DNA of 64,000 nt. Source: Acidimicrobiia bacterium. Its GTDB lineage: Bacteria; Actinomycetota; Acidimicrobiia; Spongiisociales; Spongiisociaceae. The DNA lies in NCBI GenBank assembly GCA_011523635.1, contig WTGI01000009.1, positions 16,781 to 80,780 of the forward strand. The letters run 5' to 3'. The notes beneath the pieces are model-generated. The model was not told the origin of the DNA. It did not search any database and saw nothing but the letters and a program-made list of their open reading frames with translations. The position numbers and the translations under genes were made by a program. Shown one piece after another: positions 2,891 through 44,157 of this stretch. The first letter of the stretch is position 1. Every line of letters begins with the position of its first letter.

Positions 2891-3912
2891 CCCGGCGCCC
2901 GGCCGGTGGCCTCTTGGTGGCACTGGCGGTCCTCCTCCTGCCGGCTGGGGCGGGCTGCTCGGCAGGGAACGGGGATCACGTCGTCGAGGTTGCCTTCTAC
3001 GCCTTCTTCGAGCCGGTGAGCTCGTCGGCGGACACCGATCCCGCGTCGCCCGACTTCAACGTTCACGTCGGCTACGAGGCCGACCTTCTGACCGCTATCG
3101 AGGCGATCGAGGGTTACGGCCTCCGGTTCCACCGCACCGCTATTCCCCAATGGAGCGACATCTGGCTGAGGCCGGCCGGTGCCGAGTTCGATCTTGCCGG
3201 TGGGGGCATCACCATTCTCGAGGCCCGCACCCGTGATGAGTCCGGCACAGCGGTCGTGGCGTTCACCGACGGCCACATCGACTTCACCCAGTCACTCCTG
3301 GTTCGCTCCGAAGACGCCCGCCGGTTGCCCGATCACGAGGCGCTCCTGCCTACGGATGTCGTGGGAGTCCTCCCCAATACGACCGGAGAGGCCAGGCTGC
3401 TCCAGCTCCTGGGGGTGGCGGACGAGGACGGGGGTCTCGCGGCCGGCACCCGCATCGAGACACCATCCGGTTGGATAACGGTCGAGACGGACGGTGCCCT
3501 CACCATCAGCGCCGCCCGCGCGTCGCAGGAGTTGGCAGCTCGCAAGCGCCTCATCGCGGCCGATCCCGACCGACCGGAGATCCTCTACCTGGGGGAGGAG
3601 CCCGGCGCGGAGGTCGGGGAGCCGGAGCTCCTGGCCGCACTGGCCGACGGCACGATCGACGCGATAGCCCGAGGCACCGCAGGCAACACGCTCGCGGCGG
3701 CCTCCTCGGGTGACGCCTTCGTAGTCACCGCCCTCGACCCCCGCCCCGAGCGAGGCGGATTCGTGGTAGACATCGACGACACCGGGCTCTTGAAAAAGAT
3801 CAACGAGGCCATCGCCTGGCTGACCGACGAGGGCCGGATCGGCCTGGCCGAGTGGCTGGCCGATCCTCTGGTCTTCCTCGAGCGGGCCGCCCTCTGGGAT
3901 GATCGGTACTGA
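2876..3912 (+). CDS. ABC transporter substrate-binding protein, family 3 (amino-acid type), probable lipoprotein
   Basis: Signal peptide with Cys (LLVALAVLLLPAGAGCS). SBP_bac_3 core GITILEARTRD...VAFTDGHIDFTQSLLVR. The start is uncertain. The track's ATG at 2746 lies inside the HIT gene, so TTG/CTG near 2876-2914 is preferred. Confidence 0.55.
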
Positions 3913-4007
3913 GGGCAGATCATGAGAAAGACCGCATGGGGGTTGAAATCGTCACACCCTCGCCATACATTACCCATCGCCAAGCACCTGCGCCGGTCGA
4001 GAGCTCT

Positions 4008-4171
4008 GCCAATTGGCTCGACCGACCCGAGGGAACAATCAGCTTCTAGGAGCGAAGGACCTTCATCCCGGCATCCAGCCGGGTATGGCCGACCACGCTC
4101 CAAACAGGAAAGGTGGTGGTGGGGGAGGGCCCGGTGCGGAGCGCCGGTTTTGCGGCGCGATTTTCGCGTTC
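4008..4171 (+). repeat. Copy 1 of a ~165-nt repeated structured intergenic element (candidate sRNA, cis-RNA or REP/MITE-like)
   Basis: Aligns over its full length with 10957..11118 and partially with the reverse complement of 43910..44076. Shared parts: GCCAATTGGC start, CCCGGCATCCAGCCGGG hairpin, G-rich (GGN)6 tract, hairpin CCGGTGC-GGA-GCGCCGG followed by TTTT, and a terminal CGCGATTTTCGCG hairpin. Reading frames are not conserved between copies, so it is non-coding. Confidence 0.6.
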
Positions 4172-5274
4172 TCGGGCCGGTCCGGCGGTGGCGCCGGGCG
4201 GTTGTGGTGCTGCTTATCTCCTCGCTGGTGGCTTGCGGTTTCGGATCCGACCCGACCGAGGAGGTGCCTTCCCCGGTCTGCGCGTCCGGGCAGATCGACG
4301 GCGAGGTGGTGCTGCTCAGCCGCGACGGGCAGATGGCGCCGGAGGTCATCGACCGGTTCGAGCGGCGCTACGCGGTGGACGTCAAGGAGCTGTTCTACGA
4401 GACCGACGGTGAGATGCTGTCCCGTGTAACCGCAGGCGCCGACCCGTTCGACGTGGTGATTCTTCGCCAGGACCTGGCGGCGATTCTCTGGCGTGGAGGC
4501 CAGCTCCACGCTCTCGACCCGATCGCCTTGCCGGGTCGGGTCAACCTCGACACGCAGCTCACCCGACCGGACTCGGATACCGAGGGCTTCTACACGGTGC
4601 CGCTCGTCTGGGGCACGGTCGGGATCGGTTTGAATGTCAACGTGGTGCCGGACACGGCCGAAACGAGCTGGGGACTCATCTTCGATCTCTCCCAAGCTTG
4701 GATCTACGCGGGTCGGGTCTCGCTCCTTGATGATCCCCGCCAGGTCATGGCCGCCGCCATGTTCTACCTGGGCTACTCGCCGAACTCGGCGAATCGGGAC
4801 GAGGTGCGGGAAGCCGGCCGGGTGGTGGCGGAGGCGAAGGCCCACTTGAGAGGGTTCGATTCCGAGGACTACGCGGCCAGGTTGGCCGATGGGGGGCTCG
4901 ACCTTGCTCAAGGCCGGTCGGATGACTTCCTGGCGGCCCTTGCGCCCGCCTCGGACGACTTCCTCTACGTCATACCCCAGGAAGGGGCCGCGATCTGGTT
5001 GGAGTCGATGGCCGTACCCGTCACCTCCCAGCATCCGTGCAGTGCCCACTCCTTCATCGACTACCTGCTCGAGCCTCGGACAGGAGCGCTAGTGGCCGAC
5101 CATATCGGAGAGGCCACCGCGAATACGGCCTCGCTTTCGTACCTGATGCCCGAGACCGCCGCCAACCGGACGCTCTATCCGACGCTCCTGGCCAGGGAGC
5201 GGCTGGTGCTCCTCGAATACACGGAGGAACTGGACCTCCTGTACGCCGAGGAGTTCGCTCTGGTGGTGGAATAG
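4150..5274 (+). CDS. polyamine (PotD/PotF-like) ABC transporter substrate-binding lipoprotein
   Basis: Lipoprotein signal RRWRRAVVVLLISSLVAC. SBP_bac_1/8-like body (DVVILRQD, YTVPLVWGTVGIGLN, YVIPQEGA) typical of spermidine/putrescine-binding proteins. The track ORF extends to 3922 only by reading through the repeat element. TTG 4150 or a downstream GTG is the likely start. Confidence 0.5.
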   Translation: MRRDFRVLGPVRRWRRAVVVLLISSLVACGFGSDPTEEVPSPVCASGQIDGEVVLLSRDGQMAPEVIDRFERRYAVDVKELFYETDGEMLSRVTAGADPFDVVILRQDLAAILWRGGQLHALDPIALPGRVNLDTQLTRPDSDTEGFYTVPLVWGTVGIGLNVNVVPDTAETSWGLIFDLSQAWIYAGRVSLLDDPRQVMAAAMFYLGYSPNSANRDEVREAGRVVAEAKAHLRGFDSEDYAARLADGGLDLAQGRSDDFLAALAPASDDFLYVIPQEGAAIWLESMAVPVTSQHPCSAHSFIDYLLEPRTGALVADHIGEATANTASLSYLMPETAANRTLYPTLLARERLVLLEYTEELDLLYAEEFALVVE

Positions 5275-10775: not shown

Positions 10776-10956
10776 GGGCCGCGATTCTAGGTCCGCCCGA
10801 GCGGCCTTCGACCGGCGTCCACCGGCCGGGTAGAGCTCGGGATCTGCCCCGAAGGCACCAGCGTTTTCTCGCGTTCCCGCAAGAGGGGGTTGAATGTGTC
10901 CTACCTCCGCGGTACGTTGCCCACTGCCAAGCACTGACAACCGGTACATGAACTAT

Positions 10957-11118
10957 GCCATTGGCTTTACCGGTCCGAGGGAACATACGAACTTCATGGA
11001 GCGATCGCCGATTCCCGGCAACCACCCGGGTATGGCCGACCACGCTCCGAACAGCAACGGCGGTGGAGGCGGGGGGTGGGCCCGGTGCGGAGCACCGTTT
11101 TTCGCGACTTTTCGCGGG
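10957..11118 (+). repeat. Copy 2 of the ~165-nt repeated structured element
   Basis: About 80% identical to 4008..4171 with compensatory changes in the hairpin (CGGTGC-GGA-GCACCG versus CCGGTGC-GGA-GCGCCGG). It ends 11 nt before the stop of the minus-strand CGS-family gene, so it is antisense to its neighbours. Confidence 0.6.
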
Positions 11119-11128
11119 ATGTGCGGGA

Positions 11129-12280
11129 CTAGAGGCGGTCCAGCCCTTGCGTCAGGTCCTCGATCAGGTCCTCGACGTCCTCGAGGCCCACGGAGATGCG
11201 CACCAGCCCGTCGGTAATGCCGACCCGGAGACGTTCGGGTTTCTCGACATCGGCGTGGGTCATGGTGACCGGATGGGTGATCAGCGACTCCACCGACCCT
11301 AGGTTCTCCGCCAGGGTCCACACCCGGAGAGATCTCATCAGCGCCTTGGCGGCCTCCACGCCGCCCTCGACCTCGAACCATCCCATGGCGCCGTATCCGG
11401 AGGCCTGCTTGGTGGCCAGTTCGTGCTGGGGGAACGAGGCCAACCCCGGGTAGGAGACACCGGTCACCTTGGGGTGGTCCTCCAAGAACTCGGCCACCGC
11501 CATGGCGTTGGCCGATTGGCGATCCATCCGCTCGCTCAGGGTCTTGCTGCCTTGGAGCGTCAGCCACGCCACCATGGGCGACATGATCAGGCCGGCTGCG
11601 TTCTGCACGAATGCCACCGCCTCCGAGAGCGCCTCCGTCCGGGACACCACCGCTCCACCCACCGTGGCGTTATGACCGTCGAAGTACTTGGTGGTGGAGT
11701 GCACCACCAGGTCGGCGCCGAGCTCGATCGGGCGCTGGAAATAGGGAGTCAGGAAGGTGTTGTCCACTGCGTGGGGGATTCCCAGCGAGGTGGCGATCTC
11801 GGAGACCGCGGCGATGTCCGTGTACTTGAGGGTCGGGTTGGCGGGTGTCTCGGTGAAGACGAGCCGGGTCCGTTCGTTGATCGCGGCCCTCACCGCATCG
11901 AGGTCGGATGTGTCGGCGAAGGTGAAGTCCACCCCGAATCGGGTGAACACCTTGGTGGCGAGGCGGTAGGTGCCCCCGTAGGCGACATCGCTGACCACCG
12001 CGTGATCCCCGGCATTGAGGAGGGCCATGAAAACGGCGTTGGTGGCGGCCATGCCGGACGAGAACGCCGCCGAGCCGATCCCGCCCTCCAGCTTGGCGAC
12101 TCGGGCCTCGAACGCCGTGACGGTGGGGTTGCCGGAACGGGAGTACGAGTAACCGGTAGCCATGTAGTCGTCCACCGACGGCTGCACGAAGGTGGTCGAC
12201 TGATGTATGGGCGTGAGGATGGCGCCACTGGAAGGGTCAGGCGTCACCCCGGCATGTATCTGGTCTGTTCTGAACCCCAT
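11129..12280 (-). CDS. Cys/Met-metabolism PLP-dependent enzyme (cystathionine gamma-synthase / gamma-lyase family)
   Basis: 383 aa, HAGVTPDPSSGAILTPIHQSTTF, YSRSGNPT, HSTTKYFDGHN lysine motif. MetB, MetC and MccB cannot be told apart by eye. Confidence 0.75.
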   Translation of the reverse strand: MGFRTDQIHAGVTPDPSSGAILTPIHQSTTFVQPSVDDYMATGYSYSRSGNPTVTAFEARVAKLEGGIGSAAFSSGMAATNAVFMALLNAGDHAVVSDVAYGGTYRLATKVFTRFGVDFTFADTSDLDAVRAAINERTRLVFTETPANPTLKYTDIAAVSEIATSLGIPHAVDNTFLTPYFQRPIELGADLVVHSTTKYFDGHNATVGGAVVSRTEALSEAVAFVQNAAGLIMSPMVAWLTLQGSKTLSERMDRQSANAMAVAEFLEDHPKVTGVSYPGLASFPQHELATKQASGYGAMGWFEVEGGVEAAKALMRSLRVWTLAENLGSVESLITHPVTMTHADVEKPERLRVGITDGLVRISVGLEDVEDLIEDLTQGLDRL

Positions 12281-24781: not shown

Positions 24782-24839
24782 AGCCACGGCCGGAATGCAT
24801 GAAGTCAAGACCGCGAAGAGCCAACGCTAAACTCAGGGT

Positions 24840-25955
24840 GTGACAGAAGACGGCGGTTCCGCCGCCGGACGCAGGCTCAGGCAGCTAGCCCTGCGGGACC
24901 GGCACGAAGCCCTCGGCGCCCGTTTCGCACCCTTCGCCGGCTGGGAGATGCCACTCCAGTACCAGGGGATCGTCGGCGAGCACCATGCCGTACGTAAAGG
25001 GGTCGGCGTCTTCGATGTCTCTCATCTCGGACGTGCCCTGGTGCAGGGTCCACAGGCGGGCCCCCTGCTCAGATCGGTAACCACTTTCGATGTGAACAGG
25101 CTGGCGGCCGGCAAGGCTCACTACTCGCTCTACTGCAACGAGGCCGGGGGGATCGACGATGACGTGTTCATCTACCGGCTGGTCGGCGAGCGTTGGCTGA
25201 TCGTCCACAACGCTTCCAACGCCGACCAGGACTTCGACCGGCTCCGGTCCGTGTTCGGCGACGAGGCCTCCGAGATCACTGCCGAGACAGCGATGCTGGC
25301 CGTACAGGGTCCGGACGCGATGTCGCTTCTCGGCCGCGTCCTCGGGGACGCCGTCGCCGGGCTCGAAGTGCGCTCGTGCGTGGAGCTCGACTGGGAGGGC
25401 GGGCAGGTCCTGTTTGCCCGCACCGGCTATACCGGCGAGGACGGTGGCGAGTGCATCGTGGGGGTGGCGTACGCCGCGGCGCTCTGGGATGCGCTGATCG
25501 ACGGAGGTGCATCGCCGGCGGGCCTCGGGGCGCGGGACACGTTGCGCCTGGAGGCCGCGTTGCCCCTGTACGGCAACGATCTTGACGCGGCGACGAGCCC
25601 CTACGAGGCCGGATTGGGCTTCGCGGTGACCCTTGATGACGGGGCGCCCTTCACAGGGCGCCAAGCGCTGGCCGAGGCGCAGGAGCGCCCCCGTACGCGA
25701 CGCCTCGCCCACCTCTTGGCGCGCGGGCGCGGTGTACTGCGGACGGGATATGCCGTACACGCTCCGGATGGCGGCGACCCGGTGGCCCGGCTCCGCAGCG
25801 GAAGTTTCAGCCCGAGCTTGCGTCTCGGCATCGGCATGGCCTACCTTCCCGTGGAGCTTGCGAAGACCGGCGCCCGTTTCGATGTCGACGTACGCGGCCG
25901 TATGCTCCCGGTCGAAGTCGTGCGCCGCCCGTTCTACCGAAAGTCGAGGGAGTGA
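24840..25955 (+). CDS. gcvT: glycine cleavage system aminomethyltransferase T
   Basis: FAGWEMPLQYQGIVGEHHAVRKGVGVFDVSHLGR aligns with the GcvT N-terminus. GTG start. The true start may be further downstream. Confidence 0.85.
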   Translation: MTEDGGSAAGRRLRQLALRDRHEALGARFAPFAGWEMPLQYQGIVGEHHAVRKGVGVFDVSHLGRALVQGPQAGPLLRSVTTFDVNRLAAGKAHYSLYCNEAGGIDDDVFIYRLVGERWLIVHNASNADQDFDRLRSVFGDEASEITAETAMLAVQGPDAMSLLGRVLGDAVAGLEVRSCVELDWEGGQVLFARTGYTGEDGGECIVGVAYAAALWDALIDGGASPAGLGARDTLRLEAALPLYGNDLDAATSPYEAGLGFAVTLDDGAPFTGRQALAEAQERPRTRRLAHLLARGRGVLRTGYAVHAPDGGDPVARLRSGSFSPSLRLGIGMAYLPVELAKTGARFDVDVRGRMLPVEVVRRPFYRKSRE

Positions 25956-40373: not shown

Positions 40374-41608
40374 CTATCCGCCGGGGTGGGGTTGTTGGGG
40401 GTGGTATTTGTTGAGGAAGGCCTGGTAGGCGCGTTGTTGTTGTTCATGGGGGCTGAAGTATTCGAGGTTGGTGGGGTGCCGGTAGTGGGGCCAGGTTCGG
40501 GGTGGGAGGAGCCGGCGGCGGTGTGGTGGTGTGTGGGGGTCGATCTGCTGTCCGCGCCGGTGAACGGCGATGTGGTGGTGGTACCAGCAGAGCGTGGCGA
40601 GGTTGCCAGCCGTGTCGGCGCCGCCGTCGCGTCTGGGGATGACGTGGTGTGCCTGGAGCCGGTAGCTGCTCTGGCATGAGTCGATGACGCACTTGCGGTC
40701 CCTTGCGAGAACCGCTCGGCGGAGCCGTTTGGGAACGTGGCGCCGGGTTGGTCTGATCTCTACGACCTGGCCGTTGTTGATGGTGACGGGTTCGGTGCGT
40801 CCTTCGCATTCGACCGCCTCGACGGTTTGAGGTCCGACTCGTGGACCGTTGAACAGTTCGACTCCTTGGGTGTCATTCGATTGGTCTGCGAGGGTTTGGT
40901 CCTTGATCAACATGATGACCGGTTCCCGGCCGGCGGGGTCGCCTGGTGTGAGGTTCTGGTCCAGGTCGTCTTGGGCCATGGTGGTTAGCCCGATGGCCTG
41001 TTTCTGAGCGGGTGTCAGCTCAGAATCGGTGTCTGTGCCGTGGGTGAGGCGTGGGATCTGGTCGGAGCGGCGATCCAGGGCGTGGCGTACGATCTGGCCG
41101 TCGGTGGCAGTCAGCCTGCCTGAGAGGTGCCACACGGCGCCGTCATCCGACGCTCTCAGGTTGACGTACTGTCTCTCGAACGCGCTCCGCTCGTTTCCCC
41201 GGCTGATCTTGCGGAACCTGGTGGCCAGCTTCGTGACCCCGGCCAGGTCGAGATCCTCCGAGGCAGCGAGATCGGAGGGGCTGGCTCCAGCTTGCAGGAG
41301 ACGCTGCTGGGAGACGGTGCGGTCGAACGGCAGGTGGCCGCGTCCTATGAGGTCGATGGTGTCGTCGTCCAGCCGGGCGCCAGGTAGGCGAGATCACGCG
41401 CCACCGTATGAGGTATGTCCAGCCTCGATGCTGTCCAGTCGATGAGGGATCGGTATCCGTCCCGGACGATCCCCCGGTGGCGGACCACCATCTTGAGCCA
41501 GGCGAGCTGGCGGCCCCGGAGCCGGTCGATCTCCCCCTGGGCGTCTTTGAGGTTGTTCTCGGCGACCAGAATGGAGTCGGCGTCATGAAAAGTCGGTGTT
41601 TCGTACAT
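40374..41608 (-). pseudogene. DUF222 domain / HNH endonuclease (actinobacterial 13E12-type), apparently frameshifted
   Basis: The N-terminal DUF222-like segment (41345..41608) and the C-terminal HNH segment (CVIDSCQSSYRLQAHHVIPRRDGGADTAGNLATLCWYHHHIAVH, 40374..41135) lie in different frames with no single ORF joining them. Confidence 0.45.
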
Positions 41609-41742
41609 GCCAACTAATATAATGGCTGTCTATGACAAACTATTTCTTACAATCGCAGAAATCTAAAAAATTAACGATTTCGGCATACCCAACGGCTGGG
41701 TTGGGGGAAGCATCCCGGAGAGCAATTCGAGTTGGTCGGTGT

Positions 41743-43142: not shown

Positions 43143-43892
43143 TTGGAGGTGGGTGTGAGGAGTCATGAGGTCGACTACCGGATTGTCGGTGATGACCTGC
43201 AATTCGTGGAGGTGGAACTGGACCCGCAGGAGACGGTGGTGGCCGAGTCCGGGGCGATGATGTATATCGAGGACGGCATCACGTTCGAGGTCAAGATGGG
43301 CGACGGGTCGGAGCCCAACCAGGGAGCCTGGGGAAGGCTCAAGTCGGCCGGCAAGCGGGCGCTGGCGGGCGAGTCGGTGTATCTCGGCCACTTCACCAAC
43401 GAGGGCGGCGGCCGGCGCAAGGTTGCGTTCGCAGCTCCGTATCCGGGAAAGATCGTGCCGCTCGACCTCGCGCAGCTCGGTGGCCGGATCCGGGCCCAGC
43501 GGAACGCGTTTCTCTGCGCGGCGCGGGGCACCAAACTCGATATCGCCCTCAACCGGAAGCTCGGCGTCGGCTTCTTCGGCGGCGAGGGTTTCATCCTCCA
43601 GGACATCTCGGGCGACGGGATGGCGTTCTTACACGCCGGCGGCACCATCGTCGAGAAGCACTTGACCGGCGAGAAACTCCGGATAGACACCGGTTGCGTG
43701 GTGGCGTTCGAGCCCCAGATCGAGTTTTCGATCGAGCGGGCCGGACGGGCGTCGACCATGTTCCTGGGCGGCGAGGGGCTGTTTCTGGCGACCCTGGAAG
43801 GCGCCGGACGGGTCTGGTTGCAGTCGCTCCCCTTCAGCAAGGTGGTCGACGAGGTCATCCGCCACATCCCGCCGCCCAGCAGCAGCGGCTAG
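43143..43892 (+). CDS. AIM24/TIGR00266 family protein
   Basis: Characteristic N-terminus ([30 protein letters not shown]) and C-terminus ([11 protein letters not shown]). Confidence 0.65.
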
Positions 43893-43909
43893 CGGCCTGA
43901 GTCGGCCAA

Positions 43910-44076
43910 GAACGCGAAAATCGCGGGAGCGGGCTCCGCCCGCCGGGCCCTCCCCACCGCCACCACCTTGGTCGGGGCGCGTTTTGCTATGCCCTGGTGG
44001 GGGCTGCCCCGAACGATTTGATCCGTCGAGAGGCCTGGTAGACGTCCGAACCGGGCCGTTGGTAATTACGGTTATC
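43910..44076 (-). repeat. Copy 3 of the repeated structured element (minus orientation, 5' half diverged)
   Basis: The reverse complement carries ...AAGGTGGTGGCGGTGGGGAGGGCCCGGCGGGC-GGA-GCCCGCTCCCGCGATTTTCGCGTTC. It has the same G-tract, a GGA-loop hairpin with covarying stem, and an identical terminal CGCGATTTTCGCGTTC. It lies directly downstream of msrB on the same strand. Confidence 0.5.
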
Positions 44077-44157
44077 CACTAACATACAACGGTGGTGTGA
44101 CATGTTCAACCCCTCTGTGGAGGTGACCGCCGCAGGTTGTGGGGAATCCCAGCCGGG

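Follow-up and report, generated by a model that had tools for sequence, protein, structure and literature searches.

Covarying intergenic elements of Candidatus Spongiisociales as candidate small RNA genes

Results

Three copies of one intergenic element

Examining a 64,000-nucleotide (nt) stretch of an Acidimicrobiia bacterium of the family Spongiisociaceae (assembly GCA_011523635.1, contig WTGI01000009.1, positions 16,781 to 80,780; hereafter the window), we found three copies of an intergenic element with a predicted promoter at its 5' end, a conserved RNA fold with covarying helices in its body, and a G-rich tract and GC-rich hairpin at its 3' end (Table 1). The genes on either side of copy 1, SBP_bac_3 and SBP_bac_8, encode solute-binding proteins and are co-directional. 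Copy 2 has an acyl-CoA dehydrogenase gene in divergent orientation on one side and, on the other, a convergent gene for a pyridoxal-phosphate (PLP) enzyme of Cys/Met metabolism whose TAG stop is the CTA at 11129-11131; copy 3 lies downstream of a co-directional msrB (SelR) gene, facing a convergent AIM24-family gene with its TAG stop at 43890-43892 (all gene assignments from Pfam).

Searching the window with copy 1 (BLASTN) aligned 3938-4168 with 10885-11116 at 74.9% identity over 239 columns (E=4e-35); the similarity stops at the unit ends and the flanks of copies 1 and 2 are unrelated. For copy 3, BLASTN recovered only the last ~70 nt (43906-43969) and a 20-nt block (44094-44113). A covariance model built from 29 subtype A copies (see below), run without filters over the whole 64 kb, found exactly three copies, with 193.5 bits for copy 1 (E=7e-47), 151.1 bits for copy 2 and 55.7 bits for copy 3 (E=4e-12, at 43907-44067). 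A preliminary description, made from the window's sequence, had reported a repeat of ~165 nt in three copies. Its modules are all present at 4008-4171 and 10957-11118, and its count holds for the window; the unit itself is larger, starting ~70 nt upstream of 4008 at a common promoter and giving a predicted RNA of ~200 nt. The additional 5' block of the three-way alignment, GGGGTTGAA-N3-GTC-N2-ACC...TA-N2-TT, is a -35/-10 pair with a 17-nt spacer.

Table 1. Coordinates of the element copies, their predicted parts and the gene that overlaps copy 1.
Feature	Position	Strand	Description	Basis
Copy 1 unit	3943-4174	+	subtype A	
Copy 2 unit	10890-11122	+	subtype A	
Copy 3 unit	44109-43906	-	subtype B, diverged	
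Copy 1 promoter (predicted)	3943..3971	+	-35 TTGAAA 3943-3948, 17-nt spacer, -10 TACATT 3966-3971	
Copy 2 promoter (predicted)	10890..10918	+	TTGAAT 10890-10895, 17-nt spacer, TACGTT 10913-10918	alignment with copy 1
Copy 3 promoter (predicted)	44081..44109	-	TTGAAC 44109-44104, 17-nt spacer with TGTCACAC, TATGTT 44086-44081	
Copy 1 predicted RNA	3975..4174	+	subtype A	covariance model, minimum free energy (MFE) fold, pair counts
Copy 2 predicted RNA	10922..11122	+	subtype A	covariance model
Copy 3 predicted RNA	43906..44075	-	subtype B	covariance model, subtype B alignment
Copy 1 helix P1	3994-4000 with 4018-4024	+		
Copy 1 helix P1a	4008-4010 with 4015-4017	+		
Copy 1 junction	4029-4037	+	GAGGGAACA	
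Copy 1 helix P2	4049-4054 with 4096-4101	+		
Copy 1 helix P2a	4067-4071 with 4079-4083	+		
Copy 1 G tract	4112..4132	+	(GGU)3 GGGGGAGGG, overlaps invariant GGGCCC	63-copy alignment
Copy 1 terminator-like hairpin	4131..4151	+	CCGGUGC-GGA-GCGCCGG 4131-4147, then UUUU 4148-4151	
Copy 2 terminator (predicted)	11083-11097	+	CGGUGC-GGA-GCACCG, then UUUUU	terminator scan
Copy 1 terminal hairpin	4156..4172	+	CGCGA-UUU-UCGCG and UUCU; within PotD-like codons 3-8	
PotD-like solute-binding lipoprotein gene (SBP_bac_8)	4150..5274 (probable start)	+		Pfam match

A covarying fold in two subtypes

The family comprises two subtypes with one fold, made up of helices P1, P1a, P2 and P2a and a common 3' module. 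In subtype A the 5' part reads AUCGCCAAGCACC, P1 (ACCGGCCG/CGGCCGG) encloses the small hairpin P1a, and GAGGGAACAU leads to P2 (GGAGCG/CGCUCC) around P2a (CCCGG/CCGGG), followed by a conserved CAUGGCCGACCA. In subtype B the parts follow one another as in A, but the helices have other sequences (CCGUAAGCACC; P1 GCGGUCCGG/CCGGACCGC; GAGGGAACAU; P2 GUCGAGC/GCUCGAC around a CCCC/GGGG hairpin). Both end in a 3' module of ACCAAGG, (GGN)3-5, GGGGGAGGGCCCGG, a variable GC-rich hairpin and (CGCGA)UUUUCGCGUUCUU, so that the invariant 3' module can be summarized as (GGN)n-GGGGGAGGGCCC, GC hairpin, UUUUCGCG. Applied to the window plus 53 loci from related genomes, the covariance model yielded 63 copies, some loci contributing a second one a few kb away, and over these the junction motifs, the G positions of the tract, GGGCCC and UUUUCGCG are invariant; the invariant unpaired stretches joining P1/P1a and P2/P2a are AAGCACC, GAGGGAACAU and ACCAAGG.

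Evaluating the helices by pair counts, we found a hand-drawn structure to be 89% paired in the subtype A alignment, against 25-44% with slid partners, and subtype A alone to hold 7 covarying pairs, a number reached by 2 of 500 shuffles. In the 63-copy alignment, which was fitted to the model's structure and whose pair counts are inflated by this, 86.9% of cells are paired (24-44% with partners slid by 1-3 columns) and compensatory changes occur in 22 of the 31 modelled pairs (125 cells), values that none of 500 shuffles attained. Covariation is strongest in P1, P2 and P2a, and the differences between subtypes A and B in these helices also appear in plain MAFFT alignments. Because G-U/U-G pairs exceed A-C/C-A pairs (60 versus 33), and given the orientation of promoter and terminator, we take the G-rich strand to be the RNA. 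The family is thus a structured non-coding one, as had been proposed from its first two copies, with the covariation-backed conserved structure that a stand-alone small RNA (sRNA) gene would have. Long-range helices offered by RNAalifold for subtype A (5' GCC..GC.CC with GGGCCCGGYG) were not retained, as they clash with the covarying 3' hairpin and draw on invariant columns.

A promoter-like block upstream of every window copy

A sigma-70-type -35/-10 pair with a 17-nt spacer precedes all three window copies and about 60 relatives, and a TGTCACAC-N9-TAYGNT block is conserved in nearly all members. The copy 1 promoter, whose spacer holds a conserved GTCACA (3951-3956), reached 9 of 12 matches in a promoter scan (0.1 expected) and predicts a transcription start near 3978; that of copy 2 scores under the scan's threshold. 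The wider motif TGTCAYA-N9-11-TANNNT occurs 4 times in the window versus 0.04 expected, namely at copy 3, at a single-stranded DNA-binding protein (SSB) gene (485-506, + strand, 46 nt upstream of the ATG at 551), at a leaderless-type ATG near 41607 (41616-41637, - strand, the -10 hexamer lying 7 nt before the ATG in an AT-rich patch), and at 24824-24845 (- strand). Matching the organism's general promoter architecture in this way, the family's 5' flank supports independent transcription, and the sequence thus places a predicted promoter of its own directly upstream, as expected for a stand-alone sRNA gene. The TGTCACA palindrome in the spacer could, speculatively, be an operator.

Two of these sites have features of their own. 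The motif at 24824-24845 runs directly into GGCTCTTCGCGGTCTTGAC, a sequence similar to the 3' end of the family, and this site may be a remnant copy. Positions 41600-41700 are conspicuously AT-rich for a window of 66.6% GC and may be foreign DNA.

The 3' end: a G tract, a terminator-like hairpin and variable loops

A (GGN)3-5 GGGGG N GGG tract is present in all copies and has the sequence required of an RNA G-quadruplex. With the gquad option of ViennaRNA, the predicted fold of each window copy gains a quadruplex in the tract and has an MFE lower by 10-14 kcal/mol, so a quadruplex, raised as a possibility in the preliminary description, may form according to these models, with pairing to the 5' end as the alternative. 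In copy 1 such pairing would involve 3977-3988 (CACC with GGUG, UCGCCA with UGGCGG) in a closing helix, P0, that completes a three-way junction and is used in the MFE folds of all three copies. P0 is compatible in 96% of cells, its covariation is not significant, and its duplex energy is no better than that of shuffled 5' ends (-12.2 versus -10.8, standard deviation 3.4); the modelled helix is a possibility that would explain why U/C third positions of the tract stand opposite G or A. Alternatively, GGGGGAGGG may be exposed as a pairing or protein-binding site.

Hairpins equivalent to the terminator, varying in sequence and with stems that change by compensation, are found throughout the family, and that of copy 2 passes a terminator scan with its 6-bp stem and U5. 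The GGA loop, described as invariant, is so in the three window copies; relatives carry GAA, GGC, CAC and other loops, which weakens the suggested CsrA-like binder: the multiple conserved GGA loops that a CsrA-binding sponge RNA should have are missing from a family whose loop varies. The terminal CGCGA/UCGCG hairpin likewise belongs to the copies first described and is not universal; its conserved core is UUUUCGCG, present in nearly all copies.

Beyond the 3' end, CTAG is strongly enriched: 10 of 46 dereplicated loci have it at a distance of 18-27 nt from UUUUCGCG (e.g., 11129-11132 and 43889-43892), where 0.34 would be expected. In most cases it belongs to the TAG stop with which a convergent gene ends about 20 nt away from the element. 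Convergent stops next to the element are TAG in about 8 of 9 independent cases, against ~38% of stops in these genomes, and a small variable hairpin separates UUCUU from CUAG. An origin from a miniature inverted-repeat transposable element (MITE) or an IS630-type element, brought to mind by the recurring CTAG, was rejected given that the units show no inverted repeats and that CTAG is mostly this stop codon.

Distribution among sponge-associated Acidimicrobiia

Scanning one genome per species for a 3'-end DNA pattern (GGGGNGGGCCCGG-N14-24-CGCGAYTTT) returned 64 loci, about 50 of them from some nine metagenome-assembled genomes (MAGs) of Acidimicrobiia, and the rest isolated chance matches in unrelated taxa. 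Genomes with the family are Candidatus (Ca.) Spongiisocius OZ241858.1, Ca. S. variivorans, RHO1_bin_64, SB0664_bin_25, CO36404bin_8, p16x65bins.30, OZ219922/3, RHO1_bin_3 and CBDCBK01. The single 3.67-Mb chromosome of OZ241858.1 holds 17 pattern loci, and the copies in one 3.67-Mb chromosome number at least 20. Metagenome contigs added 22 copies, confined to the whole-genome shotgun sets MKWU01 and LXNI01 and five Joint Genome Institute (JGI) contigs, two of which are marginal covariance-model matches only; some 60 further metagenome loci found with a G-tract pattern are chance matches. Three copies are therefore the window's share of a family with dozens in related genomes, and the notion of a recent duplication restricted to this genome does not hold.

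Ca. Spongiisocius belongs to the Acidimicrobiia, order Ca. Spongiisociales (NCBI taxonomy), and we infer a sponge origin of individual MAGs from isolate names; Actinobacteriota populations are common to the sponges R. odorabile, C. matthewsi and I. ramosa in a MAG survey (PMC8163846). The family is absent from Rfam: at gathering thresholds Rfam 15 gave 0 matches over the whole window, and at E<=10 the region 3900-4250 gave only a 13-bit chance match to snoZ6 on the opposite strand. Our literature search on Spongiisocius or on sRNAs of sponge Acidimicrobiia found no papers.

Old paralogs, retained loci and the absence of a conserved reading frame

Subtype A copies are mostly closest to a copy in another genome (mean best match 85%, clearest orthologue pairs 87-98%), and the best match within a genome averages 79%. 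One RHO1_bin_64 copy has 98% identity to copy 1 and the same flanks, which makes the source of the window a close relative of that MAG; a copy next to rplQ recurs in four MAGs, and a copy between msrB and AIM24 genes is found in the window and at two other loci (L036, L045). Because nearest relatives lie across genomes and flanking genes are common across species, the paralogs are older than these species and have been kept. A mobile repeat would instead show near-identical copies within a genome together with variable occupancy, a combination that we did not find; nor did we see terminal inverted repeats or target-site duplications at the unit boundaries. Units open with an A/G-rich stretch and GGGGTTGAA and close with UUUUCGCGUUCUU, to which some add a small hairpin, and neither end is an inverted copy of the other.

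Seeing a tract of GGN units, one might suspect a gene for a small glycine-rich peptide, with (GGN)n as Gly codons and a start at ATGGCCGAC, and indeed the third positions vary, the number of units shifts in 3-nt steps (e.g., L008 versus L034), and an ATG lies ahead of the tract in copies 1 and 2. That ATG is nevertheless found in only 27 of 58 full-length copies and in none of subtype B, the ATG-to-GGGCCC and ATG-to-UUUUCGCG distances fall into nine frame classes, and no stop codon is conserved; U/C variation at the third positions is equally allowed by pairing opposite G or A of the 5' end. The difference in reading frames first noted between two copies extends to the whole family, which has no conserved start, frame or stop, and we consider the peptide gene effectively refuted.

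Insertions into copies and neighbouring repeats

Several copies have been invaded or reshaped. At the locus orthologous to copy 3 in RHO1_bin_64 (L028:594-2000), a gene for a 294-amino-acid (aa) methyltransferase replaces promoter and body, so that between msrB and AIM24 only the 3' module (G tract, hairpin, UUUUCGCG) is kept. In OZ241858.1 (L032:2215-3510) a transposase gene of the insertion sequence (IS) family IS110 (344 aa, DEDD_Tnp_IS110 and Transposase_20) sits precisely within the G tract of a subtype B copy, splitting it as ...GGTGGTGGCGGTG / ... / GGGGGAGGGCCCGG; this sequence-specific IS family may prefer the multicopy G tract as a target. An insertion of ~125 nt with terminal inverted repeats (CCCCGATTCTTCATG ... 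CATGAAGAATCAGGG) at L054:1797-1930, and also at L023, L033 and L004, has entered the 5' part of subtype B copies, with CCGTAA on one side and AAGTACC on the other; it is MITE-like and displaces the promoter. Degenerate tandem repeats of ~35 nt with the core AACCTNAGG occur downstream of copy-2-like units (L003, L027, L043, L046 in two places, L022, L040), their arrays often opening with a near-perfect 20-bp palindrome (GGGCGTCATATATGACGCCC in L046), and window copy 2 itself is without such an array. At L022:2300-2420 (- strand), a subtype A copy has three tandem 35-nt repeats (GCTCACGACGCGCCACACCACACCACAAACCTAAG) where its promoter region would be.

Many sharply bounded copies of a conserved, structured scaffold would also suit a guide or scaffold RNA associated with a transposon, or an end-derived remnant, of the kind of the IS200/IS605 TnpB omega-RNA or the IS110 bridge-type RNA, and the IS110 insertion shows that the element can be a target of such systems. 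In the loci inspected, however, intact copies have no nuclease or transposase gene attached, the IS110 gene interrupting its unit rather than forming part of it; the copies are syntenic and old; and the element is conserved from its predicted start to a terminator at its 3' end with no variable guide segment visible. We hold this origin to be highly improbable.

Genomic context and the PotD-like gene

Among 59 copies examined, 16 meet the stop codon of a convergent gene within 30 nt and 14 precede a co-directional open reading frame (ORF), with convergent, co-directional and divergent arrangements all present. Neighbours include rplQ, a deaminase gene, genes for Gfo/Idh/MocA-type oxidoreductases, an ABC permease and a monooxygenase, and no functional theme was found among those of the examined copies.

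Copy 1 has the overlap of hairpin, T tract and TTG codon, between the two solute-binding-protein genes, that the preliminary description had pointed out. The PotD-like gene probably starts at this TTG (4150), within the element's 3' end, as judged from the signal peptide: TTG 4150 is the only in-frame start giving a normal lipoprotein signal peptide (predicted N-terminus MRRDFRVLGPVRRWRRAVVVLLISSLVAC, ending in a lipobox), and the next in-frame start, GTG 4204, would give only a 10-residue uncharged signal. Judged by its sequence, GGAG in the hairpin loop, 8 nt upstream of the TTG, is a likely Shine-Dalgarno site, and the element's conserved CGCGAUUUUCGCGUUCU supplies the first codons (RRDFRVL). 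The 3922-4149 part of the long ORF is an artefact, because it covers the promoter and RNA body; said to span 90 codons, it has 76. The promoter scan found no promoter-like site besides the element's own between the end of the upstream gene (3912) and the PotD-like start, so the gene is probably expressed through terminator read-through and the element is probably its de facto leader, at copy 1 only. Attenuation is plausible here as a local effect, a by-product of the position of copy 1.

Extending this to the family gives the view of the preliminary description, in which the element is a cis-acting leader, attenuator or riboswitch-like device that governs the downstream gene via its terminator. 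Copy 1 fits, its terminator hairpin, U tract and second hairpin overlapping the Shine-Dalgarno site, TTG and first PotD-like codons; about a quarter of copies lie less than 100 nt before a co-directional gene; and a multi-helix junction with invariant unpaired nucleotides and a possible P0 adjoining the terminator is an aptamer-like architecture. Copies 2 and 3 and at least 16 relatives, though, face a convergent gene and have nothing downstream to regulate, the genes that do lie downstream are functionally unrelated (dehydrogenase, FAD oxidoreductase, TrmL-like, AMP-binding, MobA-like), no ligand-sensing leader is known to occur in tens of copies per genome, and no Rfam riboswitch matches. 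The copies are not consistently upstream of, and co-directional with, a gene that they could regulate, and because neighbours are unrelated and orientations mixed we rule out a family-wide leader role, and attenuation is not supported as the general function; as an account of the element, the leader view is very unlikely.

The same arrangements bear on another explanation, that the element is repetitive intergenic "punctuation" with a role like that of REP/BIME or Correia elements, which spread in the past and was kept as a portable set of transcription signals: an outward promoter for co-directional genes, a two-strand terminator, and a C-rich antisense strand as Rho loading site for convergent genes. 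Its fold would then serve mainly termination and transcript-end stability and not a trans-acting RNA. The sharp boundaries and unrelated flanks suit this explanation, as do the high copy number, the 16 copies ending typically about 20 nt from a convergent stop with the attendant CTAG enrichment, the 14 copies that lie directly upstream of co-directional genes and leave them no room for a promoter of their own, the head-to-tail arrangement of some units, and the 3' module, which is joined to other bodies and persists alone behind the inserted methyltransferase gene. Against it stand the lack of terminal inverted repeats and target-site duplications and the age of the paralogs (about 79% identical within a genome), whose orthologues are kept across species with nothing to indicate recent mobility. 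Moreover, the strongest covariation falls in P1, P2 and P2a, helices that neither promoter nor terminator needs, and a pure punctuation role leaves the invariant unpaired junction motifs of both subtypes unexplained. We take this account seriously and consider it unlikely.

Discussion

We favor, with a probability of roughly 0.6, the reading that the copies are independently transcribed genes for structured sRNAs of ~200 nt. Each copy would be an independent gene in a large, old paralogous family of "sibling" sRNAs of sponge-associated Acidimicrobiia, transcribed from the element's own promoter, which has the architecture seen at protein-coding genes of the organism, and ending at the GC hairpin and its U-rich tail. 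The RNA would act in trans, the invariant junctions and the G-rich handle (GGN)n GGGGGAGGGCCC providing a common platform on which a shared protein binds or C/U-rich RNA pairs, and the loops, which differ among paralogs and are kept among orthologues, conferring individual specificity. In any such specific molecular mechanism our confidence is much lower than in the existence of the sRNA genes.

Several points weigh against this reading. The promoter, start site, 3' end and stability of the RNA are all predictions from sequence, and the U tracts of copies 1 and 3, behind their GC hairpins, are shorter or interrupted and fall below the terminator scan's criterion of at least 5 T. Across orthologues the whole element is conserved at 0.75-0.94, compared with 0.81-0.86 for third codon positions of neighbouring genes, and because the whole is conserved only about as well as third codon positions, selection is visible on pairs and motifs and not on the entire sequence; the pair counts of the 63-copy alignment carry the inflation mentioned above. 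Complements of the G-rich handle are not enriched in the window (11 matches versus 8.5 expected). Finally, at least 20 copies per genome exceed any well-studied sibling-sRNA family, and the sharpness of the unit boundaries suggests that the element may once have spread in a transposition-like way.

A bolder version of the sRNA reading would make the family the RNA component of an undescribed regulatory system or ribonucleoprotein specific to Ca. Spongiisociales, in which tens of co-regulated RNAs with the TGTCACA promoter palindrome were bound by a common protein recognizing the invariant junction and the quadruplex-forming 3' handle, with paralog-specific loops choosing targets; this we regard as quite unlikely. 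Whatever its role, this is a structured RNA class that covaries clearly, is missing from Rfam and occupies many intergenic regions of an uncultivated symbiont lineage. It merits an Rfam entry and would improve gene calling by removing false extensions such as 3922-4149, and it offers a concrete handle on post-transcriptional regulation in sponge symbionts; if expressed, it would be among the largest sibling-sRNA families known, with an unusual G-rich conserved module.

Nothing in Rfam 15 matches the family, and by analogy its closest counterparts in concept appear to be repetitive extragenic elements and sibling sRNA families. REP/BIME, Correia/NEMIS, ERIC and RUP elements occur in dozens of intergenic copies with sharp boundaries, often at the 3' ends of genes, and are able to fold, some having promoter or terminator activity. 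Our family resembles them in copy number and preference for gene ends; it differs in having no terminal inverted repeats or target duplications, in forming a full promoter-to-terminator unit, in its old, diverged and orthologously kept copies, and in its covarying multi-helix fold. With CsrB/RsmZ-type RNAs it shares GGA motifs, one of them in the hairpin loop of all three window copies, but here that loop is not conserved in relatives and each RNA holds few such motifs. Sponge RNAs titrate C-rich sRNAs, as RosA does for RoxS in Bacillus, and the actinobacterial 6C RNA is C-rich; an exposed GGGGGAGGG could pair with C-rich loops in a comparable manner, a purely hypothetical parallel given that the tract may be sequestered in a helix or quadruplex.

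In the sibling sRNA families FopS, LhrC and NgncR, the conserved motif is C- or CU-rich and targets Shine-Dalgarno regions, whereas the conserved module of our family is G-rich. These families (FopS of Bacteroides thetaiotaomicron, LhrC1-5 of Listeria and NgncR_162/163 of Neisseria; PMC11697453, PMC5880928, PMC9973317) are like ours in having several diverged copies per genome, in being stand-alone intergenic genes with their own promoter and terminator, and in combining a common fold and conserved motifs with differing loop sequences. Ours has no sequence or Rfam relationship to them, and its copies per genome, at least 20, are more numerous than theirs.

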